From: a virus
Taxonomy: Duplodnaviria; Heunggongvirae; Uroviricota; Caudoviricetes
IMG/VR virus record: IMGVR_UViG_3300043080_000590
Span: 258,386 to 322,385 of that record
Length of the DNA: 64,000 bases
Direction: 5' to 3' (one strand)
Numbering within the stretch: position 1 is the first letter of the stretch; each line of letters opens with the position of its first letter. Below the pieces are notes generated by a model that was not told the origin of the DNA, ran no database searches, and saw nothing but the letters and a program-made list of their open reading frames with translations. Shown here in pieces: positions 14,823 through 53,216 of this stretch. The translations under genes and the position numbers were made by a program.

Positions 14823-14854
14823 GTAAATACATTAAGAGATAGGAGGAATAAAGA

Positions 14855-15230: not shown

Positions 15231-15288
15231 ATTAGAACTTAATTATTAAAAACTATTTGTTAAAAAATAATTTATTAAAAAACGATTT

Positions 15289-15567: not shown

Positions 15568-15628
15568 TTTATTTCAACTCCTTAATTTTTATTTAATTAT
15601 TTATATTTATTTTTTTATTTTTTGTAAA

Positions 15629-18136
15629 TTACTTTTTTAATAATCTCATATCAAACTTTTTAATTTCCCAAGCTTCTTCTGTTCTATATAATTTTTCTCT
15701 TGTTCTGGCGTGTCTACGAAGCATAGGTGTATAATCTTGAAAATCAAACACAATAGCTCTTTTCTTTTCTTTACCTGTTTCAGGATTTTTATATAGTCTT
15801 AATACTCTACCCACTCTTTGAAAAGCTCTTGTGGAACTACGACCACCACCTGCTAATATCAAAATCTCTAAGTTAGGTATGTCAAGTCCTTCATCTGCTA
15901 TTGTACTACCTATTAAGATTTCTACAAAACCATCTCTTACACCTTGAATAACAGCCTTTCTTCTTACAGCATCATCCTTACCTGATAAAAATTCTACATT
16001 AGCAATTCTAACTAATTTATCTTTACCTGTCTTATCATCAGTTACTTGAACTGCTTTTTTTACTATTTCTATCTTTTTAGATAACATTTTTAATATTGTT
16101 TCTCCGTGTTCTACTTGTTGAATTAATATTAAGATAGGTGCGTGTTTTACTTCTCTCATTTTAACTGCTATACTAACAACAATTTGATTTCTTTCTATAT
16201 TATTAGCAATAGCTTCTTTATAAACTTTATTATAAGATTTACCTTGAAAAACTCTTTTGTAAGGAATAAAGTAAATAGTACAAGGCACTAAATATCCCCA
16301 TTCAATAAGTTTGCTTGCTGAAATATCATTTTCTTCTTTTCTTCTATCTAGTGCTGCTTCTAATAATAAATCAGCACCATCTTCTCTCCACGGAGTGGCT
16401 GATACACCAATTCTATAATAAGCATTTTTAGCCCATTTAGATATTTCTACAAATGTATTAGAACCTATATGATGACATTCATCAAATAAAATCATATTAG
16501 AATCTTTAATATCTTCTTCTGTTGTTGATTGAGCAGAATAAACAGTTATATCTCTTTTCTTGTTTATGCCACCACCAACAATACCTACTTCTTCCCCTAA
16601 AAACTTTCCAATTTCATCTTTTAGCTGTGTACATAAAGTTAATTTATCAGCAAAAATTGAAACAGGTCTAACATTAAACTTATCAATTAATCCTGCCATT
16701 ATAAATGTATTATGCGTTACTATAAAATCTTTACAAATAAATGTATGTAATGGACTATCTACTGCTATACACTTCATTTCAGACTTTGTAGGTAATGGAG
16801 TTATTGAAACAATTTTTAAAGCATTATAATGATGATTTTTGCCTATTCTTCTATTCTTAAATCTTTCAGTATGTTTTTTTGATGTAAATAATTTATCATC
16901 ACAGCCACGAACATGAATATACCACGTTTTGTTTCTATATCTATCACTATTAATTGTTCTTTTATCTAATACAATTTTCGCTCTATATCCAAGACTATTT
17001 AATAAAAATTGTACATCTTCTACTAATCGTTTGCTAACGGAACAATAAGTAATATGTCCTTTACTATTTACAGTACCATCTGTATCAAATAGTCCTTGTA
17101 AAAGTGCTATTCTGTCATTAACATCAGAAAATTTATATTCTTCGGGAATAAATTTATCTTCGCTTTTAATTCTTCCAAAAACCTTATGTATATAATCTCT
17201 TAAATTATCTTTTTTTCCACCGCAACCATATGTGTATTGAATCCTGTCTTTATGTCCATTTTTAAATTCTCCACCAAATTGTCTTGCTAAATCTTTTACT
17301 TTATTAATTACATCTTCCTCTGTATTTGTAAAAGTAATTTGTCTTTGAGAAAAGCCACCATCGCCTAATAATGCTCCCAATAAATATGGCGGTAAAAATA
17401 AATCTTTTTTCTCAAACTGAATTGGCTTACATACGGGAATGCTTAGAACTAAATTTCTTCCTGTTTTGATTTTATGATTGTTTAATATTTCTTCAACAGT
17501 TTTTACTTGCCATTTATTTTTTGAAAGATTGTCTCTTGTTGCAAATTTCCATAAATGATTTTTACAACATTTAATAGTTGTACCATCGTTAAATACTATT
17601 TCATATTCTTGTTGCTCACCTTGTGGATATTCTCCGATAACAGTTGTTTTATCTCCATTTTCATCAAAAACAATACTTCCTACGTGAATATCTTTTAATG
17701 GAACAAAACCATCAGGGGTTAGAATTGGCGTATCTAAGGGAATCGACTTGCCGCCGCCCGTACTGACCCTTACTATTTCCCTGTTTGAGGCGTTATCAAT
17801 TATTTTTTGTTGATAATCTCTCGCTTTTAACTCTACTTTTGAACCATCAGGTAAAGTCAAATATTCTTGTAATGCAAAATTAGCATTTTGTTCGGGTACT
17901 ACTCTTGTATCTGTTATTTTATATCCAATATTATTTTCTTCTAATATTTCATATACATAATTTAATAAACCAGTATAGGTCTTTTTTGTTTTTCTATTGT
18001 ACAAATGTCTTATTTGAATATATTCACAACCAAATTCTTTTACTTCAAAACTTAATTTTTCCCATATCTTTAATTCAATATCTTTTGAAAAACCAATCAA
18101 CTTTGAATATACATTATCAATTATAATTTCTGCCAT
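15629..18136 (-). CDS. SF2 (DExH) DNA/RNA helicase precursor containing an intein
   Basis: Walker A STGGGK|...|T is split by the intein. Motif II is DECHH and motif VI is QRVGRVLR. The extein is about 489 aa. Confidence 0.8.
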   Translation of the reverse strand: MAEIIIDNVYSKLIGFSKDIELKIWEKLSFEVKEFGCEYIQIRHLYNRKTKKTYTGLLNYVYEILEENNIGYKITDTRVVPEQNANFALQEYLTLPDGSKVELKARDYQQKIIDNASNREIVRVSTGGGKSIPLDTPILTPDGFVPLKDIHVGSIVFDENGDKTTVIGEYPQGEQQEYEIVFNDGTTIKCCKNHLWKFATRDNLSKNKWQVKTVEEILNNHKIKTGRNLVLSIPVCKPIQFEKKDLFLPPYLLGALLGDGGFSQRQITFTNTEEDVINKVKDLARQFGGEFKNGHKDRIQYTYGCGGKKDNLRDYIHKVFGRIKSEDKFIPEEYKFSDVNDRIALLQGLFDTDGTVNSKGHITYCSVSKRLVEDVQFLLNSLGYRAKIVLDKRTINSDRYRNKTWYIHVRGCDDKLFTSKKHTERFKNRRIGKNHHYNALKIVSITPLPTKSEMKCIAVDSPLHTFICKDFIVTHNTFIMAGLIDKFNVRPVSIFADKLTLCTQLKDEIGKFLGEEVGIVGGGINKKRDITVYSAQSTTEEDIKDSNMILFDECHHIGSNTFVEISKWAKNAYYRIGVSATPWREDGADLLLEAALDRRKEENDISASKLIEWGYLVPCTIYFIPYKRVFQGKSYNKVYKEAIANNIERNQIVVSIAVKMREVKHAPILILIQQVEHGETILKMLSKKIEIVKKAVQVTDDKTGKDKLVRIANVEFLSGKDDAVRRKAVIQGVRDGFVEILIGSTIADEGLDIPNLEILILAGGGRSSTRAFQRVGRVLRLYKNPETGKEKKRAIVFDFQDYTPMLRRHARTREKLYRTEEAWEIKKFDMRLLKK
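16709..17746 (-). other. Intein (346 aa) with LAGLIDADG homing endonuclease domain inside the helicase P-loop
   Basis: It begins with Ser (SIPLDTPILT...) directly after GGGK. It ends ...FIVTHN and is followed by Thr+1, which restores GKT. The two LAGLIDADG motifs are LLGALLGDGG and LLQGLFDTDGTV. Confidence 0.7.
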
Positions 18137-19069: not shown

Positions 19070-19972
19070 TTGTATATGATAAATATAACAAAATGCACAA
19101 GTACAGCTAATACAACAGTTAAAAGTAATAGAAGTATTAAGTATATTGTTATTCATTACACAGCTGGCACAAGAAGTACTGCTGGTTCTGCTAAAGCAAT
19201 TGCTCAATATTTTGGCAGAAGTTCAACAGGTGCATCAGCAGATTTTATTGTAGATGATGCTACTATTGTTCAGTTTAATCCTGACCCCAAAAATCGTTAT
19301 TGCTGGTCAGTAGGTGGTAGCAAATATTCAAATCCTGCCACTTCCGTGGGTGCTACTTATTATAACAAGTGTACTAATTCTAACAGTATCAGTATTGAGA
19401 TGTGTAGTAGTAAAACTAATACATCAAGTTTACTTGCCAGTGACACGGACTGGTATATTACAGATGCTACAACAAATAATGCAGTAGAATTGACAAAGTA
19501 TTTGATGAACCTTTATAATATTCCTGCAAGCAATGTTATAATGCACCACCACGTTACAGGCAAGATTTGTCCTAATCCTTGGTGTGTGAATGAGAGCAGA
19601 CTTAGCAAGTGGAATGCTTTCAAAGCAAAATTAACAGGTACTACTGTTGAAAAAGAAGAAGTAAAAGAAACTAAGAAATTTATTTTTGTTAAAGCAAATA
19701 TTTTAGGCAAGAGCTGTGAAATTACAGGCTTTAATGAAAATGATGAAAATTGGGTAAAAATTACTTCTATTTTAGAAGCTTTAGGCTACACAACAAAGTG
19801 GAATAATACAAAAAAGAGAGCTATTGCTGTTAAAGACGGTAAAGAAACTTTTTTGGATATTAGAACATATATATCTGTTGATAGTATTTCTTTTGCTCCT
19901 CTTAGGGAGTTGTGTGAATTCTTGGGATTCACAGTAACTTGGAGTAAAGAAGACGGCATAATTGTAAAATAA
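19070..19972 (+). CDS. N-acetylmuramoyl-L-alanine amidase (endolysin) with C-terminal cell-wall-binding region
   Basis: Amidase_2/PGRP signatures are present: IVIHYTAG, ISIEMC and MHHHVTGKICPNP. RBS GAGGTG. Confidence 0.8.
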   Translation: MYMINITKCTSTANTTVKSNRSIKYIVIHYTAGTRSTAGSAKAIAQYFGRSSTGASADFIVDDATIVQFNPDPKNRYCWSVGGSKYSNPATSVGATYYNKCTNSNSISIEMCSSKTNTSSLLASDTDWYITDATTNNAVELTKYLMNLYNIPASNVIMHHHVTGKICPNPWCVNESRLSKWNAFKAKLTGTTVEKEEVKETKKFIFVKANILGKSCEITGFNENDENWVKITSILEALGYTTKWNNTKKRAIAVKDGKETFLDIRTYISVDSISFAPLRELCEFLGFTVTWSKEDGIIVK

Positions 19973-20003
19973 AATATACTAATTACTTCGATTGAAAAAA
20001 AGA

Positions 20004-20036
20004 AAAGGACTACATTTGTTTGTAGTCCTTTTTTAT
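20004..20036 (+). terminator. Rho-independent terminator after endolysin
   Basis: Hairpin aaaggactaca / tgtagtcctt followed by TTTTT. Confidence 0.7.
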
Positions 20037-20060
20037 ATATATGTAAAGTTTTTAATTTTT

Positions 20061-20653
20061 GATGATTTTTAAAATTATTAGTATTAATACGAAATTATAA
20101 TTGATAATGTATATTCAAAGTTAATATTTACTTTCCAGTATATTAGTATTAATACTTTATTTTTTAATAATTCAAAAACAGGTTGGGGCATATTTACTTT
20201 CCAGTATATTAGTATTAATACAATGCAGTGTTAGACGTTGCGACGGCTAAAGTCAAATTTACTTTCCAGTATATTAGTATTAATACTCAGTTACGTTGAA
20301 GCAAGGCAATAAGTCTTTTAATTTACTTTCCAGTATATTAGTATTAATACATTTTATATTAACCTCACTTGCAACAAGCCAATATAATTTACTTTCCAGT
20401 ATATTAGTATTAATACTAAATTCACCTCTTGTTACTCCTCATCATTAGTATCATTTACTTTCCAGTATATTAGTATTAATACGAAGAAATAATGTAACTT
20501 ACGATAAATCTACTTTATTTACTTTCCAGTATATTAGTATTAATACTTTTCAACTGGTGTAAATGCAATATTCACAGCATATTTACTTTCCAGTATATTA
20601 GTATTAATACCCGTTCAGTGTACAGTAGTACATTTTATTAGTATTTGAAATAC
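20061..20653. CRISPR. CRISPR array: 8 identical 30-nt repeats (ATTTACTTTCCAGTATATTAGTATTAATAC) plus degenerate repeats at both ends; about 9 spacers of 34-36 nt
   Basis: Perfect repeats start at 20126, 20192, 20257, 20321, 20387, 20453, 20517 and 20581, with a regular 64-66 nt period and unique spacers. The reverse complement GTATTAATACTAATATACTGGAAAGTAAAT ends in GTAAAT like clostridial type I-B repeats, so minus-strand transcription is possible. No cas genes are present in the window. Confidence 0.85.
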
Positions 20654-30374: not shown

Positions 30375-30403
30375 TTGACAAAAAATGTATATTGTAGTAG
30401 AAT
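30375..30403 (+). promoter_or_regulatory. Sigma-A-type promoter (TTGACA-17-TAGAAT)
   Basis: TTGACA at 30375-30380 and TAGAAT at 30398-30403. It lies upstream of the HU gene. Confidence 0.55.
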
Positions 30404-30487: not shown

Positions 30488-30775
30488 ATGACAAAGAAAG
30501 AATTTGCACAGAAGGTAGCAGAAAGACTTGACACAACACAGGCAAATGCAGCAAGAAGCATTGATGCAGTTTTTGACATTCTTGCAGAAACATTAGAGGC
30601 TAATGATACATATAGCCAGCAGGGTTTTGGTACATTCAAGACTAAGAAGCAGGATGCCGCAACAAGAAGAAATCCTGCAACAGGTGAGGTTATGGAGTGT
30701 CCTGCAAAGTATGTTCCTAAGTTTTCTTATTCACCAAAGGTTAAGACTGCAATCGCAAGCATTACAGTTGAGTAA
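30488..30775 (+). CDS. hup: HU/IHF-family histone-like DNA-binding protein
   Basis: The GFGTFKTKKQDAATRRNPATGE arm motif is present. The gene is markedly more GC-rich than its surroundings. Confidence 0.85.
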   Translation: MTKKEFAQKVAERLDTTQANAARSIDAVFDILAETLEANDTYSQQGFGTFKTKKQDAATRRNPATGEVMECPAKYVPKFSYSPKVKTAIASITVE

Positions 30776-30814: not shown

Positions 30815-30851
30815 AAATGTAGATAAGTATTTTGCTTATCTACATTTTTTA
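30815..30851 (+). terminator. Rho-independent terminator
   Basis: Hairpin atgtagataag(tattttg)cttatctacat followed by TTTTT. Confidence 0.7.
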
Positions 30852-30868
30852 TAACACAGAGGAATACT

Positions 30869-31615
30869 ATGAAAATATTAAAAAGATTATTACCAATTAT
30901 ATTTATTTTAATATTATGGGGTATAGGTAGTTTATTTACAAAACCTTTATTTTTACCATCGCCGATAAAAGTATTTAATACATTTATCTCTTTATTACAA
31001 AATGGTATGCTAGTAAAAGGGTTTGTATATTCATTTATTAGAATATCTATTGCAACATTATTATCAATGTCTATAAGTGTTATTTTATCTATTTTAATTA
31101 TGAATAGTAAAGTAATTGATGATTTAATGACACCTATAACGAATTTTTTAAGATATTTACCTATTACAGCATTTTATCCATTGTTAATGATGTGGTGCGG
31201 AATAAATGAAAGAATGAAAATAAGTTTTTTATTTTTAGCAACTTTTGTTTATTTTTTACCTACATTAGTTTTAACAATGAAAGATATAGACCAAAATCTA
31301 ATAGATACGGCATTAACAATAGGAGTTAAAAAATATCAGTTAGTATATAGAATAATCTTACCTTATTGCTTACCTGTTATTTGTAAGACTTATTTAATGA
31401 TGTATGGAATTGGTTGGACTTATATAGTGATTGCTGAAACAGTAAATGCTAAGTTTGGATTAGGGCATTTAATAAATGTTGCAACGTCAAGAGGTAGAAC
31501 TGACCAAGTATTTGTTGTATTGATAATAATTATTTTATTTAGTTATTTATTTGATACATTATGCTCTTATGTAATTGAAAAAATATTTAAATGGAAATAT
31601 ACAGAAAGGAAGTAA
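30869..31615 (+). CDS. ABC transporter permease, NitT/TauT (SsuC/TauC-like) family
   Basis: It has 6 TM helices and matches BPD_transp_1-type sequence (…IAETVNAKFGLGHLI…). Confidence 0.7.
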   Translation: MKILKRLLPIIFILILWGIGSLFTKPLFLPSPIKVFNTFISLLQNGMLVKGFVYSFIRISIATLLSMSISVILSILIMNSKVIDDLMTPITNFLRYLPITAFYPLLMMWCGINERMKISFLFLATFVYFLPTLVLTMKDIDQNLIDTALTIGVKKYQLVYRIILPYCLPVICKTYLMMYGIGWTYIVIAETVNAKFGLGHLINVATSRGRTDQVFVVLIIIILFSYLFDTLCSYVIEKIFKWKYTERK

Positions 31616-31619
31616 TATA

Positions 31620-32429
31620 ATGAATAATAAAAACAATAAAGATAAGTTTAATTTTTTAAAATCTATAATTATTATAGGTGTTATCGTTTTAATTTTAATT
31701 ATATTGTTACTTTGTTCAATAAGAGTTGTTCCTGGCGGTTCAACAGGTGTAGTAGTTAGATTAGGTGCAATACAAGAAGATACTTTAAAAGAAGGTTCAA
31801 GCTTTGTTACACCATTTATTACAAAAGTTGTTAAAATAAATAATAAAGTAGTAAGAACTGATGTAACAGGTACTTCTGCTTCTAAAGATTTACAAACAGT
31901 AACATTTACTGTATCTGTTAATTATCAAGTAATTCCTGAAAAGTCTGCTTACATATATAGAACATTAGGTGAAGATTACGAAAATGTAGCATTAAGACCT
32001 GCTGTACAAGAATGTGTAAAGTCTGTTGTATCTAAATATACAGCAGAAGAATGTATTACTAATAGACAAGAATTAAGTACTCAAATGAAAGAGGAATTAA
32101 ATCATAAAGTCTATGAGTATGGTATTGTTGTAGCAGATATAAATGTAATAAATTTTGATTTCTCAGCTGAATTTAATGCTGCAATTGAACAAAAAACTAC
32201 TGCACAGCAAAACGCTTTAAAGGCTGAACAAGATTTAGCAAGAATTAAAATAGAGGGAGAACAAAAGATTGCACAGGCAGAAGCTGAAGCAAAGGCAAAT
32301 GAGATTAAAAATGCTCAAATTACCGATAATACTTTAAAAATGAAGTTCATTGAAAAATGGAATGGTGAACTTCCTGCTGTTGTTGGTTCAGAGGATAATT
32401 TATTTAGTGTAGATAATTTCATAAAATAA
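31620..32429 (+). CDS. SPFH/band-7 (stomatin/prohibitin/HflC-like) membrane protein
   Basis: An N-terminal TM helix is followed by an SPFH core (VVPGGSTGVVVRLGA...) and a C-terminal A/E/Q-rich coiled coil. The start was moved to the ATG at 31620, after RBS GGAAG. The ORF-track start overlaps the permease. Confidence 0.7.
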   Translation: MNNKNNKDKFNFLKSIIIIGVIVLILIILLLCSIRVVPGGSTGVVVRLGAIQEDTLKEGSSFVTPFITKVVKINNKVVRTDVTGTSASKDLQTVTFTVSVNYQVIPEKSAYIYRTLGEDYENVALRPAVQECVKSVVSKYTAEECITNRQELSTQMKEELNHKVYEYGIVVADINVINFDFSAEFNAAIEQKTTAQQNALKAEQDLARIKIEGEQKIAQAEAEAKANEIKNAQITDNTLKMKFIEKWNGELPAVVGSEDNLFSVDNFIK

Positions 32430-32523
32430 TTTTTCAGACAAGAGGACTTACTAAAAGTCCTCTTATTTTTATATTTTAAATATTTATTTTAATTATAAAT
32501 AAATATAAGGAGCGTTTTTGTTT

Positions 32524-33642
32524 ATGAAAAATAGAATTTTAAAAAGATTATCTGCAATTAATTTGACAGATAAGGAAGAAAATTTTTTATTTTTACTTGA
32601 AGATTTAGATTTTGGTAAGGCTACAATTAATGATATAAGAAAAGAATTGTCAAATGGTGAGAAAACAATAAATGATATTGCTAAAGAATTAAAACTTACT
32701 GATGAGAAATTAGATGGTTTTGATTTAGGTGAGGATGAAAAAGCTAATAAAGATTCATTTAGTGCAGGTACTACTAAAGCACTTAAAGATTTTATTAAAG
32801 ATAATAGATTTCCAATAGAAGATTTAAAAGATATTGGTGATATGGTAAATAGTAGTAATACAGCTTTCTTTGAAAGTTTAGTAAAGGCTGATAGTAGAAA
32901 AGAATTTAGTGCTGATGTTTATATTAAAGCATTACAGTTAAATGACCAGTATAGTTCTGATAAGATGGATAAGCTTATTGTTTATCTTTCAAATGTTAAG
33001 AGAAAAGTAAGTTTAAATACTCTTGATTATTTTGAAAATATGTTTTTACCAGCAGATATTGAAAAACTTTCTGACGATAGATTTAAACATACTTTTATTG
33101 CAAGTGGTACACTTAATGCTGTTGCTTCTTTAGCAAAAGTTCCTAGGTCATCAGAATTAGTAAATGATATTATTACTGTAATGGTTGATTTTGACGTACA
33201 TCACGCAATTGCTAATATGGTTTATTGTTATTTGAAGAATAAGAATAATATGGACTTAATGGAAGAATTTTGCGAGGAAGTTCCAAGAGCAGACAAGGGT
33301 ACAGAAGATGATGCTGCTTGGAAAGTAATTAGAAGAATCCTTGCTGAAAATGATAGAAGTTTCGCAGAGTTTGTTTTGGATGATTTAGGTATTGTAAAGA
33401 AATTCTTAAATGATGATGAAGCAATGAAAGATATGGAAGATTTGTATGAGGAATACAAGGGCAATGCAACAAAGTTTAAGATTTTTAAAGATTGTCTTGC
33501 AGATGGCATAATTGATGAAGAAGAAATTTCAGAAATAATGTTCCAGAATGATACTGATAGAGAACATTTTGAGGATGAAGAAGAATATATCAATACATAT
33601 AGCAAGAGAAATAAAATTCGTATGAGAATGGGTAAAAGATAA
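32524..33642 (+). CDS. Acidic hypothetical protein
   Basis: About 372-aa ORF with RBS AAGGAG. Confidence 0.45.
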   Translation: MKNRILKRLSAINLTDKEENFLFLLEDLDFGKATINDIRKELSNGEKTINDIAKELKLTDEKLDGFDLGEDEKANKDSFSAGTTKALKDFIKDNRFPIEDLKDIGDMVNSSNTAFFESLVKADSRKEFSADVYIKALQLNDQYSSDKMDKLIVYLSNVKRKVSLNTLDYFENMFLPADIEKLSDDRFKHTFIASGTLNAVASLAKVPRSSELVNDIITVMVDFDVHHAIANMVYCYLKNKNNMDLMEEFCEEVPRADKGTEDDAAWKVIRRILAENDRSFAEFVLDDLGIVKKFLNDDEAMKDMEDLYEEYKGNATKFKIFKDCLADGIIDEEEISEIMFQNDTDREHFEDEEEYINTYSKRNKIRMRMGKR

Positions 33643-33659
33643 TTATATAAAATTATTAT

Positions 33660-33690
33660 AAGGGAACTTTATTGAGTTCCCTTTTTTATA
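33660..33690 (+). terminator. Rho-independent terminator; a second hairpin plus T-run lies at 33741-33772
   Basis: agggaact...agttccct followed by TTTTTT, then agtagttt...aaactact followed by TTTTTTTT. Confidence 0.65.
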
Positions 33691-33798
33691 TTTTGAAAAA
33701 TCATTCAATAATACTAAAAGAAAATATGTATAGTTTACTTAGTAGTTTAAAAAAACTACTTCTTTTTTTTATATTTTAAAAAAAGGTAGGTGATATAA

Positions 33799-34065
33799 AT
33801 GAATGAAAGTTTAACAGTAGAAATTTCTTCATATACAAAGGAAGATAAGCTTATTACAAGTGAAAAATTTGATATACCGCTTAAATTATTTAGTGACCAA
33901 ATGTTTATTCCTATTTTCTATAATGGTCTTAAAAAAACATATTATGACAATGATGTAATTGAAAATTATGAAGAAACACATAATGGTTTCTGTGAAGTTA
34001 CAATTAAGGCTTTTAATAAAAAATTAAATGCTAAAGTAGTAACAGATATAAAAAGAAACTTCTAA
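33799..34065 (+). CDS. Hypothetical protein (88 aa)
   Basis: RBS GGTAGGTG. Confidence 0.35.
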   Translation: MNESLTVEISSYTKEDKLITSEKFDIPLKLFSDQMFIPIFYNGLKKTYYDNDVIENYEETHNGFCEVTIKAFNKKLNAKVVTDIKRNF

Positions 34066-34083
34066 AAATAATTATTAAAAACA

Positions 34084-34112
34084 TTGACAATGTTTAAAAT
34101 TTGTTGTATAAT
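34084..34112 (+). promoter_or_regulatory. Sigma-A-type promoter (TTGACA-17-TATAAT)
   Basis: TTGACA at 34084-34089 and TATAAT at 34107-34112. It lies inside the ORF-track start of the ATPase gene, which implies a downstream start codon. Confidence 0.6.
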
Positions 34113-34154
34113 GAACTTGTTAAAATACCTATATTTTATGGAGGTACAACCGAA

Positions 34155-34751
34155 GTGATTATTAAAAATTTACATTTTCAATATGATAATAATATTGTTT
34201 TTGATAAATTAAATTTAAAATTTGAAGATAATCAAATAAATTGTATTGTTGGTAAATCTGGTGTAGGCAAATCTACATTATTAAAATGTATTGCAGGTTT
34301 GTTAAAATATAAGGGAGATATTTTAATAAATGATGAAAAAATAAATATTGATGATGTTTTTATGATGCACCAAAGCTATACTAATTTTCCTTGGCTTACT
34401 TGTTTAGATAATGTTTTATTCCCTATAAAAATAAAAAGAAAAATAAATAGTGAAGATAAACAGCAAGCTATTGATTTGTTAAATAAAGTAGGACTTAAAA
34501 ATAATTTAAATGATTATCCCAATCAATTATCAGGTGGTATGCAACAAAGACTAGCATTAGCAAGAACATTATTAATACAACCTAAAATATTACTTATGGA
34601 CGAACCATTATCCGCATTGGATAATAATACAAGAACTCAAATGCAAAACCTAATATTAGACTTACACAATTCTATACATAACACAATTATTCTTGTTACG
34701 CATAGTGAATATGAAGCTAAATTATTAGGTGATAAAATAACAAAATTATAA
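34155..34751 (+). CDS. ABC transporter ATP-binding protein (NitT/TauT family)
   Basis: Walker A GKSGVGKST, ABC signature LSGGMQQR and Walker B LLMDEP. The start is reassigned to the GTG at 34155, after GGAGGT. Confidence 0.75.
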   Translation: MIIKNLHFQYDNNIVFDKLNLKFEDNQINCIVGKSGVGKSTLLKCIAGLLKYKGDILINDEKINIDDVFMMHQSYTNFPWLTCLDNVLFPIKIKRKINSEDKQQAIDLLNKVGLKNNLNDYPNQLSGGMQQRLALARTLLIQPKILLMDEPLSALDNNTRTQMQNLILDLHNSIHNTIILVTHSEYEAKLLGDKITKL

Positions 34752-34771
34752 AAGAAAGGAAGTTTTTACTT

Positions 34772-35320
34772 ATGGCAAAAAGTTTATTTGAAAAATTAGG
34801 ATTGGTGGAAAGTGAACCTATACAACCTATTTCTTATGACGTTGAAGATATATCGTCTGATGATACAGAAGAAGAAATAGAAACAACAGATTTTAATGAG
34901 GAATTGATTTATCCTGATGAAATTTATAAAAATGCTAAATACGAAAATGAAAATAGTATTTATAAAATTCAGGAATTTAAAGAGGCATTACCTAAAACAA
35001 TGTCAACAGAAATGATGAAGCAATCAGTTTTGGGTATATTAAAACCTACTAACTTAGATGTAAATGATTTAATTGAAGATGGTAAGGCAAGAATAAATAT
35101 CTTAAATCATAATATAGCATCTCTTAATGCAGAAAAAAATGATTATGTAGATATTCTTTCAAAAGAAATTGCCGAATTACAGGCTAAGATAGAAAAGAAT
35201 AAAATTGATATAAATAATAAAGAAGTTTTCTCTGCAAAGCAATTAAGTGTAATTGAAGATGAAATTAATAAGATAAATAGTATAATTAATTTCATTAGTA
35301 GTTCTACGGAAGGAGAATAA
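34772..35320 (+). CDS. Acidic coiled-coil protein
   Basis: 182 aa. Confidence 0.4.
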   Translation: MAKSLFEKLGLVESEPIQPISYDVEDISSDDTEEEIETTDFNEELIYPDEIYKNAKYENENSIYKIQEFKEALPKTMSTEMMKQSVLGILKPTNLDVNDLIEDGKARINILNHNIASLNAEKNDYVDILSKEIAELQAKIEKNKIDINNKEVFSAKQLSVIEDEINKINSIINFISSSTEGE

Positions 35321-35323
35321 AAA

Positions 35324-36127
35324 ATGATTAATGGCACGTTATTTGGAATAGGTGCAGTATTAGCAATATTGGCAACAACCAAAGTTTTATTTCCTAATGC
35401 TAAATTATTTATTCTTATTGAAGGTTTCTTTAGTGGTTGGGTAGAAGATAAAACTAAAACCCCTGACGGAGCTAAAGCTGTATATAATAAAAAAATTCAA
35501 GAATTACAAGAATCATATAATAAGGCAAATGATACTTTACAAAAAGTAACAGGTAGAAAAATGACAATTCAAAAAGAATTAGATAGTTATACGGAAGAAT
35601 TATCTAGTATAGAAAAGAATTGTGAAGCGTTAGCAAAGAAACAAATGTTTGATAAGATAGAACCTTTATCAGAACGTAGAGAAGATATTCTTTTAGAAAT
35701 AGAGCAAAGGAAACACATTCTTGAAGAATTAATTCCGCAGGTTGAAGAAGCTAAAATGATAAATACTAAACTTCAAGAAAACCTTTCTAATATGAAAAAA
35801 GAAAAAGAGAGAATTTTAAGAGAATTAGAAACTAAGAAGCAAATGAAAGAAATCTATGATGAAATGGATGAACTTAAAAATGTTTCAACAACAAATCAGA
35901 TGATAAATACAGTTCGTGAAGGAGTTAAGGAGCTTTCAGAACAGGCTGAGGGTGCTAAAGAGATTTATAATAATAAAAAGTCTACTAAGTATGAAAGAGC
36001 CAAAGAAGAAGCTCAAAAAGCCATATCTTCTAATTATGTAGAAGAATTAAAAAAGAAATATGGTAATAATTCTACTAAGACAAATAGTGCTGAGGTAGAG
36101 AAACAAAAAGTAACTGTTAAAGCTTAA
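35324..36127 (+). CDS. Membrane-anchored long coiled-coil protein, PspA/IM30-like organisation
   Basis: An N-terminal TM helix is followed by about 230 aa of heptad-rich coiled coil. RBS GGAAGGAG. Confidence 0.3.
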   Translation: MINGTLFGIGAVLAILATTKVLFPNAKLFILIEGFFSGWVEDKTKTPDGAKAVYNKKIQELQESYNKANDTLQKVTGRKMTIQKELDSYTEELSSIEKNCEALAKKQMFDKIEPLSERREDILLEIEQRKHILEELIPQVEEAKMINTKLQENLSNMKKEKERILRELETKKQMKEIYDEMDELKNVSTTNQMINTVREGVKELSEQAEGAKEIYNNKKSTKYERAKEEAQKAISSNYVEELKKKYGNNSTKTNSAEVEKQKVTVKA

Positions 36128-36208
36128 TTTTGTTGTTTAGAGAAAAATTCTCTTTACATATATACTATTTATAATACTTTTTTAAAAAGAAAGGAGCAGT
36201 ACAAAACA

Positions 36209-37762
36209 ATGTTGAGATTGACAACAAAAGGGAAAATTGCCATTTTAATTTTGCTTTTAATTATTATTGGCGTAGCAGGATTCTTTGGTGTAAAAAAGGG
36301 TTGGATTAAGACAGGTAATATTAAAGAAAAGATTGAAAATATTACTTCTTCTGTTGGTTCAACAAGTAAGGCAAGTAAGAGTAAAACAACGCAGGAAAAG
36401 ACCAATGTAATCAATTTATCTTATGACGAATGGACAGGGTGGAAAGAGATTTTAGATGCTCAATCAAGAGGATATTATGATGAAGAAGGTATTACTGTTA
36501 ATATCAGTGTAATGAATGATGCTACTGATAGTTCTAATGCTTTAATTAGCGGAGATTTAGATGCAGCAGGTTATACTGTTAATAGATATGCTTTCTTAAT
36601 GGATAAATTCAAGCAGAACAATGTTGATGTTGCAATGCCTATTATTATTAATAGAAGTAGCGGAGGTGATGGCATTATTGCTGATGCTGATATCAATTCT
36701 ATTAAAGATTTAGTAGGTAAAAAGGTTGGTGTTCCAAGATTTAGCGAAGCACAAACTTTAGTTGAATGGTTTGTTTCTAAGTCTGATTTAACAGACGATG
36801 AAAAGAGTAAAATAGAATATGTATATTTTGATACACCTGACGAAACTGCAAGTGCTTATTTCGCAGGTGAAATAAATGCTGCTGCTACTTGGCAACCATA
36901 TTTAACACAAGCACAAGAAAGCACAGATAGTCATATTCTTATTGATACAAGCAATGCTACAAGTCTTGTATTGGACGGTATTGTATTTAGACAGGATTAT
37001 CTTGATGTAAATGCAGATACAGTTGAAAAGTTCATCAGAGCTACTTTAAAGGCTTATGATGATTACAACGATACTGATTATACAGCATTAAGAAATAATA
37101 TGTCTATGTTTTCAAGTATGAGTGATGAAGAAATTGCTGATACATTACCTGATGCAACATTATTAAATTGGAATGAAAATATGGAAGTATTAGCCGATGA
37201 AGCTGTTATTCTTTATAGAGATATGTCTAATATTTGGAATGATTTAGGAGAAACAGCTTATCCTGATATGGCAGAACAAGCATTTACTACTACATATATG
37301 AGTGCTTGTGAAGATTTAAAAACTGCTGATATAAAAACTGTTTCAGTTACAGCAGAACAAAAGGAAGAAGTTAAGAATAATTCAGATAATTATGATGCTT
37401 TAATAAATGCACAAGCAACAATTAACTTTAAGGCAAATTCAGCAGTATTTGCAGACCAAGAAGAAGCTGCTAAAGCATTAGACGAATTTGTTGATACTGC
37501 TAAAATGCTTGATGGTGCAATTATTATGATTGAGGGTAACTCAGCTAATACAAATGGTGCTACTGAAAATAGTGAGTTTGATATTAAACTTACAGAACAA
37601 AGAGCTAAGACTGTTGCTAATTATTTCATTAGTAAAGGTATTGATAGTTCAAGATTTATTACTGTTGGTAATGGTATTGGTAATCAGATAGCAGATAACT
37701 CCACAGAAGAAGGTAGAGCTAAGAATAGAAGAACTGATATTAAATTCATTATTGCTGAATAA
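36209..37762 (+). CDS. Fusion protein: NitT/TauT-family substrate-binding domain (NMT1/SsuA-like) plus C-terminal OmpA-like peptidoglycan-binding domain
   Basis: It has an N-terminal TM anchor. The SBP region is …DAAGYTVNRYAFLMDK…. The OmpA-C motif is TVANYFISKGIDSSRFITVGNGIGNQIADNSTEEGRAKNRRTDIKF. Confidence 0.65.
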   Translation: MLRLTTKGKIAILILLLIIIGVAGFFGVKKGWIKTGNIKEKIENITSSVGSTSKASKSKTTQEKTNVINLSYDEWTGWKEILDAQSRGYYDEEGITVNISVMNDATDSSNALISGDLDAAGYTVNRYAFLMDKFKQNNVDVAMPIIINRSSGGDGIIADADINSIKDLVGKKVGVPRFSEAQTLVEWFVSKSDLTDDEKSKIEYVYFDTPDETASAYFAGEINAAATWQPYLTQAQESTDSHILIDTSNATSLVLDGIVFRQDYLDVNADTVEKFIRATLKAYDDYNDTDYTALRNNMSMFSSMSDEEIADTLPDATLLNWNENMEVLADEAVILYRDMSNIWNDLGETAYPDMAEQAFTTTYMSACEDLKTADIKTVSVTAEQKEEVKNNSDNYDALINAQATINFKANSAVFADQEEAAKALDEFVDTAKMLDGAIIMIEGNSANTNGATENSEFDIKLTEQRAKTVANYFISKGIDSSRFITVGNGIGNQIADNSTEEGRAKNRRTDIKFIIAE

Positions 37763-37779
37763 TTATTCTAAATATTATA

Positions 37780-37815
37780 AAGACCTGATAATATTTCAGG
37801 TCTTTTTTATTTTTC
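37780..37815 (+). terminator. Rho-independent terminator
   Basis: Hairpin agacctga(taatattt)tcaggtct followed by TTTTTT. Confidence 0.7.
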
Positions 37816-37843: not shown

Positions 37844-38680
37844 ATGGAAAGGTTAATTAAAGAAATTCCTAATAATACATTTCATAGATTGTTAAAAAGT
37901 GAATTAGAAGATAACGTAAAAGAAAAATTCTATTTCTGTATTAATGATAAAAAAGTTAGTATAGATAAAATTAATACTTTTAATACTGGAATTGTTTTTT
38001 ATTTTGATGGAAATAAAATTATTTGTTTAGATAATATTGATGAAGAAGAAATAACAGAATTATTTTCTAATGTAAAAGAATATTTAATAGATATATTTGA
38101 TAATTTCAATTATGAAATATATTCTAATAATAAAAAATTAGAAGTTGGCTTGTTAGATATTATACAAGAATTTAGTTCAGCAAAAACTTCAACAAATATA
38201 ATTAATCGTATATATAAAAATACTGAATTTACCCCTAATTCACTTGTTTTAGATTATGGTGGTGGCAAATATGACAGTTCTATTGAATATTTAGCTAAAA
38301 AAGATGTAACTGTTTTAGTTTATGACCCATATAATCAAACTTCTGAACATAATAAAAGAGTTCTTAATATTGTTGAAGAAAACAATGGTGCTGATTATGT
38401 TGTTTGTTCAAATGTATTAAATGTAATTAAAGAATGTTCTATTATTGAAAATATATTAGAAGATTTAGATAAATATTGTAAAAAAGGTGGCATCATTAGA
38501 ATTTGTGCTTGTGTTCTTGATGGTTCTAATAAAGCCAAACCTAATAAGAAAAATGATACATTTCAAAAGAACAAAAAAACAAAGTATTATAATGATTTAA
38601 TAAATAATTTTTTTGGAGATAAAGGTTATACTGTTGAAACAGTTAAAGACCATTCTGAAATTTTTAACATAAAAAAGTAG
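37844..38680 (+). CDS. Class I SAM-dependent methyltransferase-like protein
   Basis: Motif I-like LDYGGGKYD and a post-I acidic residue VLVYDPYN. Confidence 0.4.
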   Translation: MERLIKEIPNNTFHRLLKSELEDNVKEKFYFCINDKKVSIDKINTFNTGIVFYFDGNKIICLDNIDEEEITELFSNVKEYLIDIFDNFNYEIYSNNKKLEVGLLDIIQEFSSAKTSTNIINRIYKNTEFTPNSLVLDYGGGKYDSSIEYLAKKDVTVLVYDPYNQTSEHNKRVLNIVEENNGADYVVCSNVLNVIKECSIIENILEDLDKYCKKGGIIRICACVLDGSNKAKPNKKNDTFQKNKKTKYYNDLINNFFGDKGYTVETVKDHSEIFNIKK

Positions 38681-46680: not shown

Positions 46681-47794
46681 GTGACAGCGATGTTAAAGGC
46701 ATACAAATACAGGATTTATCCCAATGAAGAACAAAAGATATTGTTAGCAAAAACATTCGGCTGTTGCCGTTTTGTTTATAATAAAACACTTGCATACCGT
46801 AAAGAAAAATATGATAGTGAAAGAAAGTCTGTTAGTAAAACAGATTGTAATAATTACTGCAACAGAGAATTAAAGACAGCATATGAATGGCTGAAAGAAG
46901 TGGATAAATTTGCCCTTACCAATGCTGTTTACAATATGGATAATGCTTATCAAAAATTTTTTAAGGAACATACAGGCTATCCTAAATTTAAAAGTAAGCA
47001 CGACAATAACAAATCATATACAACCAATTATACCAATGGTAATATTGACGTAGATTTTGAGAACGGAAGAATAAAACTCCCAAAACTTAAACAAGTAAAG
47101 GCAAAACTACACAGAGTTTTTGACGGACAAATAAAATCAGCCACAGTTTCACAAGTACCGAGCGGAAAATTTTTTGTATCTGTTCTGGTGGAAACCGAGC
47201 ATAAAGAACTTCCACATAAACAAACGAATATTGGGTTAGATTTAGGAATTAAGGATTTGTGTATAACATCTAATGGTAAAATTTATAAAAATCCTAAAGT
47301 AATAAAAAGGTATGAGAAAATGTTGACAAAGTTGCAAAGACAACTTGCACACAAAAAAAGAGGAAGTAATAATTATTATAAAGCAAGGAAACGGGCTGCA
47401 TTGTGTTATGAAAGAATAAAAAATACAAGAAAAGATTATTTGCATAAAATTTCAAAAGAGATTATAAGCGAAAACCAAGTTATAGTTTCAGAAGATTTGC
47501 AAATAAAAAATATGATGAAAAACGATAATCTTTCAAAAAATATAGCTGATGTATCATGGTATGATTTGACAAGGCAGTTGGAATATAAAGCAAAATGGAA
47601 TGGCAGAGAATACGTTAAAGTAGATACTTTTTATGCAAGCAGTCAAATTTGTTCCGAATGTGGATATAAGAACGCAGAAGTAAAGGATTTGTCTGTTAGA
47701 AAAATGGATATGTCCGAAATGCGGAAAAGAGCATAACAGAGATACAAATGCAGCAAAAAATATATTAGCGGAAGGACTAAGACAAATAGCATAA
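46681..47794 (+). pseudogene. tnpB: IS605 OrfB/TnpB (RuvC-like, Zn finger) with +1 frameshift in an A-run near 47700-47710
   Basis: The ORF stops after ...[15 protein letters not shown]. The +1 frame continues [29 protein letters not shown], which is the canonical TnpB zinc-finger end, down to the stop at 47792-47794. Confidence 0.7.
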
Positions 47795-50329: not shown

Positions 50330-50661
50330 AAGGGAATGATTGCTTGAGTATAAAACCACTTTAATTGAATTTTATATAAATAAAAATAATATAAAATTGC
50401 TGGAAACCTCTAAGATTTAAATTACTACAACATAATCGGAAATGATAGGTGTGAAAGTTAAAAAAATTTAAAATACATGAGCAATCAGCAGCCAAAATTC
50501 TAAGTATGATTAAGTTATATATGAATAAGGTTCAACGACTATCGAAAACGTAAGAAATATTTTTACAAGTGAGTAGAGTACATATATGAAAATATATGGA
50601 AACGAGTGGCACATTTTTTATGTGAAGATATAGTCTAATTTATATTGAAAAATATAAGTTG
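50330..50661 (+). ncRNA. Group I intron 1 (ORF-less, 332 nt)
   Basis: P1 forms between exon CUCAGGU and the IGS GCUUGAG at 50343-50349, with a U-G wobble at the splice site. Core elements are P aattgctggaaa (50393), Q aatcagcagcc (50481), R gttcaacgactatcg (50529) and S aagatatagtct (50624). The 3' terminal nucleotide is G, and the spliced product reads LHSG|GKLF. Confidence 0.8.
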
Positions 50662-51658
50662 GGTAAATTATTTGCTAATGGGGAATCAGGATATTTTAGT
50701 ACGATAGGCACGTATGGTCTGGGAGCAAAACTTACTAACGCTTTATCTGATGATTTTATCGCTAAAGTGAAAAGAAATGGTAGAATTTATCGGCAAACAT
50801 TTAAAAAAGGTAGACCTACCTCTGATGTTGAAATTATTGGTACTGTTGATTTAAATGATACAGGAACTAAAATTACGTTTCATCCTGACTCTACAATATT
50901 TAAAACGACAATTCAACCAAATGATAAAAAATTACAAAACAGACTTGATGAAATAACTTCTTTAAATACTAATTTAAAAGTTAATTATAAAAATGAATTG
51001 GCTAATGTAGATACAACATTTTATTATCCTAATGGTATCGCTGATTATATAAATAAGAAGTTGTTAAAAGATAAAAAACTTTTGTTCGAAGAACCAATTT
51101 ATTATTCAAGTGAATACGTGGATAATGATGAAACTATTAAAGTTGAATTTTCTTTAATGTATGTTGATGATGTGGAAAGTAATGAAATTATTAAAACATT
51201 TGCTAATAATGTATCAACAAAAGAACACGGTACACATTTAGTAGGTTTTAAAGAGGGTTACAAAGAAGCTATTAATCAATATTCAATAAGTAAAAAATGG
51301 ATAACCGAACCCATTGAGATTAAATATCTAATGGATAATATTTGTTTAATTGTATCTGTTAAGTTAAGAGAATGTGAGCTTGATGGACAAACAAAAAATA
51401 AATTAGGTAATTTAATAGCTAAAGATGGTGTTGCTAATGTTGTTAAAGAATACTTTAATAAATTAAGTAAAGAACAACAAGTAGTAATACAAACAATAGT
51501 TGAAAGAGCTAATAAAGTAAAAGAAGCAGAAGAAGCTGCAAGGAGAGCAAGAATAAACACAAGGACTGCTAATAAAATAAAGAAAATAGCATTACCTGGT
51601 AAACTTGCTGATTGTAGTAGCAATAAAGGATATAGTGAGTTATTCTTAGTTGAAGGAG
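50662..51658 (+). CDS. gyrB: DNA gyrase subunit B, exon 2 (…GKLFANGESGY…LADCSSNKGYSELFLVEG)
   Basis: GyrB ATPase-transducer and the start of TOPRIM. The ORF-track ORF is 50659-51666. The exact 3' boundary is uncertain by 1-2 nt. Confidence 0.75.
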
Positions 51659-52038
51659 TAGCCTAAGGCAGAAACTCCCTATTAAGTAGTAATATTTAAT
51701 AGAAAATTTCTTTAATTGCTGGAAGTTCCTAAAATTAATTATACCTTATAAAAGGTTGCGAAAGTAGAAAAAAATAATTAAATGATATATGGTGATAGTA
51801 AACCTAAGTATTATAAGAAATAATAATTTCTAACAATGGATAATCAGCAACAAAATATATAAATAAAAAATATATATGTTCAACGACTATGCTTTAAAAA
51901 GCAGTAGGATAAAAGTTTATCTGAAATGGGAAAATACTTAAATGTTTAAGTATATGATATAGTCTATGCACTAATGAAAGTTAGTGAAAAACTAAATGTT
52001 TTTATTATAGTTTAACAAACTATGGTTAATGTAATTAG
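51659..52038 (+). ncRNA. Group I intron 2 (ORF-less, about 380 nt), same subfamily as intron 1
   Basis: Core elements are P aattgctggaag (51711), Q aatcagcaac (51843), R gttcaacgactatgc (51879) and S atgatatagtcta (51954). The 3' end is G at 52038. The 5' junction is placed by protein homology (EG|DSAGG). Confidence 0.7.
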
Positions 52039-52106
52039 ATTCTGCTGGTGGTTCAGCAAAGAACGCAAGATATAGAGAATTTCAAGCTATATTACCATTA
52101 AGAGGT
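52039..52106 (+). CDS. gyrB: DNA gyrase subunit B, exon 3 ((D)[22 protein letters not shown])
   Basis: 68-nt micro-exon encoding the invariant [16 protein letters not shown] segment. It is absent from the ORF track. Confidence 0.75.
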
Positions 52107-52416
52107 AAGGAATTTGCCTCTACATTTCTAACTGTTTGATATAACAGGGTATGCTTAAAAACGATTTAAATTCGTTTTAAGGCTTGCTAACGAGGAAAGC
52201 TTAACATTATACATATAAGTCAAAATATGTTCAGGTGAAGTCAATCTCGTGCGAAATATAGCGATTTAATAATCGCTGTTCGTGTATCGACTATCCTAAG
52301 TTAGATTAGGAGTACAGGTTTTATAAAACTTGGAAATGGAATGACCGTTTTAAAAAGTTTGACAAACTTATAGGCTAAGAAATAGTCAGTGCTATTAGAA
52401 ATAATAGATTATAATG
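52107..52416 (+). ncRNA. Group I intron 3 (ORF-less, 310 nt), different subfamily
   Basis: P1 forms between exon AGAGGU and the IGS GCCUCU at 52116-52121, with a U-G wobble at the splice site. The 3' terminal nucleotide is G at 52416. The spliced product reads LRG|KILNTEKA. Confidence 0.7.
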
Positions 52417-53216
52417 AAAATCCTTAATACTGAAAAAGCCAGTTTTGAAAAAGCATTAAATTCAGATGTTATTAAATCATTTATTGCTGCAATAGGAACA
52501 GGTATAGGAAAGAATTTTAATATAGATAAATGTAGATATGATAAAATAATTATGATGTGTTTTACAGAAGATACGCAAGTAAAACTTTTAAATGGTACAA
52601 ATCCAACTTTTAAAGAATTAGTTGAAATGGAAGAAAAAAATCCCAATCAAACTTATGAAGTTTATTCAAAAAATAGTAATGGAAAAATTGTACACGGTAA
52701 AGCACATAACCCAAGAATTACAAGTTATATTCACGAATTAGTTGAGTTGACATTAAATAATAATGAGGTTGTTAAATGTACAAGAAATCATTTATTTATG
52801 CTTAATGATGGTACATATAAAGAAGCTCAATTATTAACGACAGAAGATTGTTTAATGAGTATGCAGGAAGAATGTAATAGGATTATTAATAAACAAATTG
52901 TTACTCTTGACCATTTAATTCCTGTCTATGATATAACAGTAGAGGAATATCATAACTTTGCTTTAAATAGTGGTGTGTTTGTTCATAACTGTGATGCGGA
53001 CGTTGACGGTTATCATATCTCAAACTTAATTTTAACTTTTATATATAATTATATGCGACCTTTAATTGAAAATGGTTATATATATTTAACAGTACCACCT
53101 CTTTATAAAGTTATTACTAAAAAGGAAAGTCTTTATATAAGAGATGATATTGAGTTAAAAGAATATAAAAAGAAACACCCAAGAGAAAATTTAGAAGTAC
53201 AAAGATTTAAGGGGCT
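52417..53216 (+). CDS. gyrB: DNA gyrase subunit B, exon 4 (TOPRIM), containing a mini-intein
   Basis: Sequence KILNTEKASF...IGTGIGKNF...KIIMM[intein]CDADVDG...PPLYKV...QRFKGL. The ORF-track ORF is 52414-53250. Confidence 0.8.
52558..52989 (+). other. Mini-intein (144 aa, no endonuclease domain) in the GyrB TOPRIM motif
   Basis: It starts CFTEDTQVKL with Cys1. Block-B-like CTRNH is present. It ends GVFVHN and is followed by Cys+1. Removing it restores IIMM-CDADVDG, matching the conserved IIMTDADVDG motif. Confidence 0.75.

Follow-up and report, generated by a model that had tools for sequence, protein, structure and literature searches.

Five genes of a viral DNA encode the permease of an ATP-binding cassette (ABC) importer, its ATPase, an acidic coiled-coil protein (here called the adaptor), a PspA-like protein and a substrate-binding protein (SBP) fused to an OmpA-like domain. 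We conclude with high confidence that they form one conserved phage module. The genes lie in a 64,000-nucleotide stretch of DNA (the window) from IMG/VR virus record IMGVR_UViG_3300043080_000590. Positions 30869-37762 contain eight open reading frames (ORFs), every one on the + strand and where the initial annotation had placed it; three of them, coding for an SPFH/Band-7 protein, an acidic soluble protein of 372 or 374 amino acids (aa) and an 88-aa product, are inserted between the permease and ATPase genes. The window has a G+C content of ∼25% and carries genes for baseplate J, tail lysozyme, DnaB, SbcC/Rad50, HU and gyrase. Because of this phage gene set, and because the window baseplate protein is closest to gp188 of Bacillus phage G (35% identity), we assign the window to a large phage related to phage G. 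The earlier view that the cluster is phage-borne was borne out by the baseplate J, tail lysozyme, DnaB and SbcC genes.

The co-occurrence of the five genes was counted in 85 phage loci; 80 of the 208 IMG/VR contigs found by an alignment-based scan were examined. The PspA-like and SBP-OmpA genes were present in all 85 loci, the adaptor gene in 82, the ATPase gene in 81 and the permease gene in 80, and most absences fall at contig ends. The genes always run from permease through ATPase, adaptor and PspA-like protein to SBP. The initial annotation had allowed that homologues of these genes might never co-occur elsewhere. They do occur together, in fixed order, in 80-85 of the 85 loci and in phage G, and on these counts a chance juxtaposition was rejected. 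When the ORFs of 88 loci were clustered all against all, no sixth conserved gene emerged, and no Vps4-like or AAA+ partner was conserved among these loci. The only AAA_5 gene among the window ORFs scanned is located at 60405-61376, 23 kb away. In a 301-kb relative (L090), a gene for an AAA_5 ATPase of the MoxR type and a CoxE-like VWA gene were observed a few kb 3′ of the module, at 14658-15605 and 19498-20537.

A megablast search of the region against 50,697 phage records returned no matches, and neither did a single-protein scan of IMG/VR, whereas protein-level and alignment-based searches succeeded. With the binding protein as query, tblastn against phage records detected phage G gp249 (52% identity), a human-gut phage contig, all Lak megaphages (∼27%) and a 735-kb phage (24%). 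All three transporter genes are present in the Lak phages and in the 735-kb phage, and upstream of them are genes for an acidic coiled-coil protein and a transmembrane (TM) coiled-coil protein of the same build. A second gene order, namely adaptor, PspA-like protein, SBP, permease and ATPase, was also found, both orders being represented among jumbo-phage-like contigs from Clostridia assemblies, and the PspA-like and adaptor proteins are homologous across the two orders (hhalign, 99.8% and 98.5%, respectively).

A scan of GTDB (one genome per species, with a 12-sequence SBP alignment) revealed 30 further loci, nearly all in metagenome-assembled genomes (MAGs) and isolate assemblies of Clostridia. 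The isolate assemblies that carry the module on large contigs (among L094, L095, L093, L114 and L117) are those of Hominicoprocola fusiformis CLA-AA-H269, Dysosmobacter segnis BX15 (a 387,785-bp contig), Lacrimispora amygdalina, Acetatifactor muris DSM 23669 and Oscillospiraceae 50-58. In L095, the one GTDB locus inspected, the flanking genes code for NAMPT, NadE, a primase-helicase, PolIII-alpha and a PD-(D/E)XK nuclease, a jumbo-phage-like set. The isolates that bear the module may harbour cultivable jumbo phages or episomes. Close cellular homologues did not appear in any of these searches. The order of the module is kept across 25-55% protein identity and hundreds of genomes; the module behaves as a vertically kept operon and not as a fast-turnover island.

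Components of the module

The domain assignments made in the initial annotation held throughout when Pfam, PHROGs, NCBIfam and hydrophobicity were consulted, and hydrophobic N-terminal segments were detected in three proteins (SPFH, PspA-like and binding protein). Relative to a ∼92% identical contig (L087, from JGI 3300035498), the dN/dS values of the cluster genes were 0.03-0.11 (0.03 for the permease and 0.05 for the ATPase), except for the 372/374-aa gene (0.33); the cluster genes are under purifying selection. The coordinates of all features are collected in Table 1.

The permease matches BPD_transp_1 with 63.6 bits (cut-off 26.4), and its nearest NCBIfam families are SaoP, TauC and SsuC, each below the equivalog cut-off. 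Its coupling (EAA) loop, as read from the translation, is DTALTIGVKKYQLVYRIILPYCLP. The GTG start assigned earlier to the ATPase gene proved correct: a GGAGG ribosome-binding site is present at 34141, 3′ of the promoter at 34084, and the orthologues elsewhere are also 198 aa long. The motifs of the ATPase are complete, with Walker A (GKSGVGKST), the Q-loop, the LSGGQ signature (LSGGMQQR), Walker B with the catalytic Glu followed by the D-loop (LLMDEPLSALD), and the H-loop (VTHS). The protein is a minimal nucleotide-binding domain that lacks a regulatory extension, and PHROGs places it in the category "moron, auxiliary metabolic gene". At the sequence level, the set thus has a BPD_transp_1 permease with its EAA loop, complete ATPase motifs and a co-encoded SBP, as type-I ABC importers do, and we infer that the three proteins would form a working importer of the NitT/TauT type. 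An assignment to the TauABC or SsuABC equivalogs was tried and rejected, every NCBIfam equivalog cut-off being missed.

The binding protein consists of a signal-anchor TM segment (aa 10-28), a linker rich in S, T and K, an NMT1/TauA-type domain (aa ∼63-330) and an OmpA-like domain (aa 407-507). It scores 71.7 bits with NMT1, 43 bits with NMT1_2 and 54.7 bits with OmpA (cut-off 27.2), and matches phrog_25518 over its full length (6e-174). The nearest PDB entries are TauA (6ssy) for the NMT1 part, and Rv0899, YiaD and PA0833 for the OmpA part. The initial annotation had regarded the fusion of an SBP to an OmpA-like domain as atypical; its relatives number at least 647 (E≤1e-10) and are found on contigs of up to 595 kb, and it is instead the rule across a large phage family. 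In the JGI and NCBI databases, relatives bear names such as "NitT/TauT family transport system substrate-binding protein" and "putative aliphatic sulfonates-binding protein".

In OmpA-like domains, a conserved Asp (G-x-T-D) and Arg (LSxxRA) hold diaminopimelate, as in AbOmpA and Pal. Among ∼120 relatives the Arg is invariant. The canonical form (GNTD...LSxQRA) is found in about half of the family, TD being present in 57 of the ∼120 and [IVL][AN] in the others, phage G included; the window protein has GNSA where the canonical motif is GNTD, and the window and phage G together read GN[S/V][A/N]. In the binding domain, the invariant residues D154 and D256 align with Glu106 and Asp205 of TauA, and Glu180 aligns with Thr132 (∼20% identity). 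TauA Glu106 and Asp205 hold the amino group of taurine (PMC6906117), whereas Gln30, its sulfonate contact, falls outside the aligned stretch. The match of D154 and D256 to these amine contacts gives only a hint that the ligand could be an amine-bearing compound.

The SBP gene of the window is intact, and a separate TnpB gene is present at 46681-47736. In L087, an IS605-type TnpB element of ∼1.85 kb interrupts the SBP-OmpA gene after residue 75 and so separates the anchor from the 416-aa remainder. The disrupted allele was seen in three samples (L087, at 7864-11251, L088 and L089), and the site matches window positions 36433/36446. Some genomes have two SBP-OmpA paralogues per permease/ATPase pair, as observed in phage G (gp249 and gp250; L001, 9806-13011) and in L107 (5957-7417 and 9872-11356). 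L107 lies on a 766-kb contig of a sheep-gut Clostridia MAG, and the neighbours of its module are VWA, TelA and SLH-domain genes and a gene for a two-TM coiled-coil protein with an acidic tail.

The PspA-like protein has an N-terminal TM helix (aa 1-22, with the hydrophobic segment at aa 1-19), a conserved EDxxKTPxGA motif and a long helical hairpin, and it matches phrog_33389 over its full length. PF04012 was matched by 21 of 29 members of its family at E≤0.01 (best 1.4e-12) and was the only family matched consistently; several database relatives carry a precomputed PF04012 match. An AlphaFold2 (AF2) model had a predicted local distance difference test (pLDDT) score of 76 overall and >90 over aa 50-170, with, in order, the TM helix, a short helix, the long hairpin (H47-105 and H109-187) and a further helix. 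The top PDB matches of this model in Foldseek were Vipp1/PspA structures (6zvr, 8qbr, 7o3w and 4whe; TM-score up to 0.74), and a fold search of BFVD gave just coiled-coil noise. The amphipathic helix α0 of PspA/IM30 is not present in the protein, and a hydrophobic TM helix stands in its place, which is a difference in the mode of attachment. From the charge distribution, the PspA part should be cytoplasmic. In one locus (L036), a 286-aa ORF at 9039-9899 matches both ABC_tran and the PspA-like family, and merged those two clusters; no adaptor was detected there. This ORF may be a rearrangement, a fusion or a frameshift.

The adaptor has the N-terminal motif SLFEKLGLVE and a C-terminal helix of 80 residues; between them lie a linker, acidic and disordered, and a small domain of helices. 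In its family, which counts 682 representatives at the 50% clustering level, the N-terminal peptide ...FEKLGL(V/I)E is conserved and the linker ranges from 30 to >200 residues. The adaptor matched no known family or protein and no Pfam family, and it is not PspA-like (hhalign, 1.5%). Its build would suit a tether with two binding ends.

The permease-ATPase junction and the transcription units

The SPFH protein gave 121.6 bits with Band_7 (PF01145; cut-off 23.6) and 5.9e-52 with phrog_200, and HflK/HflC are its nearest families in NCBIfam. It has a TM anchor at aa 31-49, its dN/dS is 0.10, and by the positive-inside rule it is probably extracytoplasmic. The acidic 372/374-aa protein had no match in Pfam, PHROGs, NCBIfam or PADLOC, and its sole homologue is in L087 (80% identity), which also has a 95% identical copy of the 88-aa ORF (dN/dS 0.05). 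The three genes occupy the permease-ATPase junction in no locus other than the window and L087. In relatives at 60-70% protein identity, the same junction holds 116- and 317-aa genes (L086, a 54-kb contig) or 148-, 55-, 113- and 326-aa genes (L090), and in phage G it holds a single 63-aa ORF. The 372/374-aa protein showed no similarity to the 317- and 326-aa proteins at the same position, despite an alike N-terminus. Because relatives carry unrelated genes there, the junction is an insertion hotspot, the three-gene insertion is lineage-specific, and the transporter "split by membrane-scaffold proteins" of the initial annotation is not a design feature.

SPFH genes were found beside or near the module in eight other loci, immediately upstream of the permease gene in three and 3-6 kb upstream in five, and their products are 20-25% identical to the window SPFH protein. 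Those of other lineages were observed at 6346-7269 (L020, L035 and L066) and at ∼1700-4900 (L006, L009 and L011). Overall, SPFH genes take three different positions relative to the module. Their recurrence is reminiscent of the PspA-Band-7 links described for bacteria, but the association is only suggestive.

Table 1. Features of the module region (window coordinates)
Feature	Position	Strand	Remarks
σ70-type promoter	30375..30403	+	TTGACA-17-TAGAAT, 11/12 match; upstream of HU gene and permease
HU gene	30488-30775	+	Pfam; neighbour, outside the conserved module
Terminator-like hairpin and T-run	30817..30853	+	Between HU and permease; "30815" of the initial annotation
ABC importer permease, 248 aa	30869..31615	+	Core gene 1; TauC/SsuC/SaoP-like; Pfam BPD_transp_1
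SPFH/Band-7 protein, HflK/C type	31620..32429	+	Insertion gene 1/3; ATG 4 nt after permease stop; ORF open from TTG 31575
Intrinsic-terminator-like hairpin	32440..32464	+	3′ of SPFH gene; terminator scan
Acidic soluble protein, 374 aa (TTG) or 372 aa (ATG 32524)	32518..33642	+	Insertion gene 2/3; pI 4.74
Intrinsic-terminator-like hairpin	33660..33683	+	3′ of acidic 372/374-aa gene; terminator scan
88-aa ORF	33799..34065	+	Insertion gene 3/3; no family in Pfam or PHROGs
σ70-type promoter	34084..34112	+	TTGACA-17-TATAAT, 12/12 match; drives ATPase, adaptor, PspA-like and SBP-OmpA genes
ABC ATPase, 198 aa from GTG 34155	34155..34751	+	Core gene 2; Pfam ABC_tran, 103 bits
Acidic coiled-coil adaptor, 182 aa	34772..35320	+	Core gene 3; nameless family, no Pfam family; pI 4.37
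Membrane-anchored PspA/IM30-like (ESCRT-III-type) protein, 267 aa	35324..36127	+	Core gene 4; PF04012 sub-threshold, AF2, Foldseek
Binding protein (SBP-OmpA), 517 aa	36209..37762	+	Core gene 5; NMT1 and OmpA above Pfam cut-offs
Bidirectional terminator-like hairpin	37779..37805	both strands in scan	Closes the operon

The promoters at 34084 and 30375, both proposed in the initial annotation, are the two top σ70-type matches of the region. The window contains 15 copies of a near-consensus promoter class (2.9 expected) with the extended consensus TTGACAAA.AATAAAAAATATGGTATAAT and a TG-extended -10; its sites include 14794, 39342, 44659, 54486, 57382(-) and 58261(-), and the two cluster promoters are looser members of it. 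The terminator scan found 7 sites (1.3 expected). The terminators proposed at 33660 and 37780 were among those recovered (the latter at 37779), whereas the hairpin between HU and permease (arms atgtagataag...cttatctacat, then a T-run) was missed by the scan and seen by eye. The likely transcription units are the HU gene with attenuation; permease and SPFH; the 372/374-aa gene; the 88-aa ORF, possibly alone; and ATPase, adaptor, PspA-like and binding protein genes. The promoters of the operon are of the host type (σ70-like). An HU gene is near the module in just 2 of the 85 loci.

Just 3′ of the operon, a methyltransferase-like gene (Methyltransf_23, weak match; 37844-38680) was observed, which is missing from the otherwise collinear L087 and is an indel between close relatives. 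Elsewhere in the window, a LAGLIDADG_3 domain was seen within a ResIII/Helicase_C protein (15629-18136, - strand), and an Intein_splicing/HINT domain beside Toprim in the gyrase B region (50659-53250, + strand). Both are likely to be inteins or homing elements in replication genes.

Possible roles of the module

We tentatively propose, at a little less than even confidence, that the module couples solute uptake to membrane stabilisation during long infections. A type-I ABC importer with a small-solute ligand would be assembled from two permease subunits, two copies of the ATPase and the tethered binding protein; through its OmpA-like domain, the binding protein, and with it the whole transporter, would probably be fixed to the cell wall. 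On the cytoplasmic face, the PspA-like protein with its TM anchor would form polymers, as PspA, Vipp1 and LiaH do, and the adaptor could link or regulate it by means of an N-terminal peptide motif and a coiled coil at the C-terminus. Such a polymer would lend stability to the membrane and the proton-motive force, and overall the module would serve to maintain an intact and supplied host envelope through the long infection cycle of a very large phage. To these parts, the window lineage has added a HflK/C-type SPFH scaffold, in parallel to the bacterial PspA-Band-7 pairings. The initial annotation had considered an auxiliary metabolic or membrane-remodelling module. A role in membrane maintenance or remodelling together with transport fits the parts found here, and it echoes a bacterial operon that combines PspA/Snf7, ABC and PBP-OmpA genes (PMC11237479).

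Several observations weigh against this proposal. Gene order is the single line of evidence that points to a physical coupling of transporter, adaptor and PspA-like protein. Because the SBP gene is split by TnpB in a sister lineage, the binding protein is dispensable for the persistence of that lineage, in keeping with an accessory role. E. coli TauA is the sole solved relative of the binding domain (E 1e-5 to 3e-7), and no component reached its NCBIfam equivalog cut-off (SaoP, 97.9 vs 295; TauC, 90 vs 342; SsuA_fam, 74 vs 163.5; SsuB-type, 151 vs 395). With GNSA in place of GNTD, peptidoglycan binding by the OmpA-like domain of the window copy is uncertain. As to the PspA-like protein, the window copy matches PF04012 over nearly its full length with E 1.9e-6 and 28.1 bits, under the 33.9 cut-off; the Foldseek E value of its model is only ∼1e-2, weak fold-search statistics being usual for coiled coils; and a profile of its family retrieved no PspA or Vipp1 from the PDB sequences. 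Homology of the acidic and TM coiled-coil proteins of the Lak phages and the 735-kb phage to those of the phage-G type was not established (hhalign, 30% and 67%; no PF04012 match), and these proteins are positional and architectural analogues.

The same parts might instead build a trans-envelope mechanical device, in which the ABC cycle, acting via the permease and the wall-bolted SBP, drives or gates an ESCRT-III-like polymer that remodels or repairs the membrane; such a device could control when lysis takes place, form invaginations or vesicles that serve replication, or protect against abortive-infection effectors that depolarise the membrane. The strict linkage of an ESCRT-III-type protein and a dedicated adaptor with the transporter points in this direction, as do the double anchoring of the SBP by a TM helix and an OmpA-like domain, the minimal ATPase without a regulatory extension, the SPFH genes that recur nearby, and a bacterial analogue in which the same parts are joined with an AAA+ remodelling ATPase. 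We nevertheless regard such a device as unlikely: the permease has a type-I importer fold with an ordinary coupling loop and an SBP, the invariant pocket-like residues of the SBP suggest genuine ligand binding, and no AAA+/Vps4-like partner is conserved in the phage loci. We also think it improbable that the five genes constitute a single trans-envelope machine, a hallmark of very large phages, with a wall-bolted ABC motor linked by the adaptor to an ESCRT-III-type polymer. Such a machine would let the phage remodel or repair the host membrane by means of ATP hydrolysis and/or ligand sensing, with possible effects on lysis timing, on resistance to membrane-targeting abortive infection or on the building of membrane compartments.

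The initial annotation had also raised a membrane-based device for defence or superinfection exclusion. A module of this kind would alter the envelope such that competing phages cannot inject their DNA or finish infection. PADLOC provided no specific defence-system match, just generic ABC-ATPase models and the ZorB MotB-type OmpA domain, and on this basis a known defence system was rejected. A complete importer with intact catalytic motifs would be needless for exclusion, and an order kept over 25-55% protein identity and in hundreds of genomes is more to be expected of a housekeeping-like accessory operon than of a rapidly exchanged defence island. We hold an anti-phage module to be very unlikely, even though all parts are in or at the membrane behind host-type promoters, variable cargo is found at the permease-ATPase hotspot, the sister lineage persists with a split SBP gene, and Al-Shayeb et al. 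(2020) suggested that huge phages may influence susceptibility to other phages through their membrane and surface proteins. A plain auxiliary metabolic importer (e.g., for sulfonate, taurine, nitrate or phosphonate), recently captured from a host and with the coiled-coil and SPFH genes as unrelated neighbours, would agree with the NitT/TauT-type components, with the database names of the binding protein and with the PHROG category of the ATPase. This explanation is disfavoured because of the strict linkage with the two coiled-coil genes, which accompany the transporter in 82-85 of the 85 loci and in both gene orders. In addition, close cellular homologues were not seen and the L095 neighbourhood is jumbo-phage-like, all equivalog cut-offs were missed, and the sulfonate contact of TauA lies outside the alignment while the amine-binding acidic residues are conserved; we consider such an importer quite unlikely.

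Single transporter parts, for example pstS, are already known from phages. That hundreds of giant-phage genomes, from hosts that include Bacillus and Clostridia and possibly Bacteroidota, keep an entire importer alongside a PspA-type protein points to a need at the host envelope that very large phages have in common. For PspA/ESCRT-III biology, the module offers a compact, self-contained viral system with a built-in membrane anchor and a new partner family, and a trans-envelope machine, if true, would have no virus-encoded precedent among prokaryotic ESCRT-III-like systems with a defined motor. The results also correct a likely mis-annotation, the genes of the module being routinely labelled as sulfonate or phosphate transporters. 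Phage G with Bacillus (Priestia) megaterium is a cultivable pair for the study of solute uptake coupled to membrane stabilisation, and the isolates of Dysosmobacter, Hominicoprocola, Lacrimispora and Acetatifactor are further candidates.

Comparison with known systems

The literature searched contained no description of a phage-borne module of PspA and ABC genes. The closest counterpart in a named phage is gp243-gp250 of phage G (JN638751), an orthologous module in the same order: permease gp243 (55% identity), ATPase gp245 (45%), adaptor gp246 (32%), PspA-like gp247 (45%) and SBP-OmpA gp249 (49%). Unlike the window, phage G has the 63-aa gp244 in place of the SPFH, 372/374-aa and 88-aa genes, an additional gp248, and gp249 and gp250 as tandem SBP-OmpA paralogues. 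The labels in its record are "ABC-like transporter permease", "ABC transporter" and "OmpA/MotB domain", the rest being nameless.

With TauABC and SsuABC (NitT/TauT; TC 3.A.1.17), the phage module shares the three-component type-I importer and the catalytic and coupling motifs, and its SBP is nearest to the SsuA family and TauA. It differs from them in the membrane anchor and OmpA-like domain of its SBP, in an ATPase reduced to a minimal domain of 198 aa, and in scores far under the equivalog cut-offs. Its substrate may be other than a sulfonate.

LiaI-LiaH and PspA-YdjI(SPFH) of Bacillus subtilis are systems in which a membrane anchor keeps a PspA-type polymer on the cytoplasmic side. The phage module resembles these systems in having a PspA-type protein with a membrane anchor and an SPFH/Band-7 protein in the same neighbourhood. 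In contrast to them, the anchor is fused to the phage PspA-like protein, where it replaces α0, and the SPFH protein of the window is HflK/C-like and lies inside the module only in the window lineage.

The bacterial operon mentioned above is that of Candidatus Handelsmanbacteria (OGG56892.1 neighbourhood; Ravi et al., mSystems 2024, PMC11237479). Besides PspA and PBPB+OmpA, it encodes a permease and an ABC ATPase, together with a divergent Snf7 that has a TM anchor and a double AAA+ ATPase. Ravi et al. noted this operon in passing and proposed a link between membrane remodelling and solute transport; they also reported that PspA-Band-7 links recur in bacteria, and do not mention phages (PMC11237479). 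By its described gene content, the operon is like the phage module in that an SBP-OmpA fusion, a permease, an ABC ATPase and a TM-anchored protein of the ESCRT-III superfamily are found in one operon. The two differ in gene order and in several parts: the bacterial operon has a soluble PspA and a two-domain AAA+ ATPase, both absent from the phage module, whereas the phage module has its own acidic adaptor family, unrelated to PspA, and its anchor protein scores as PspA/IM30, where that of Handelsmanbacteria is a Snf7.

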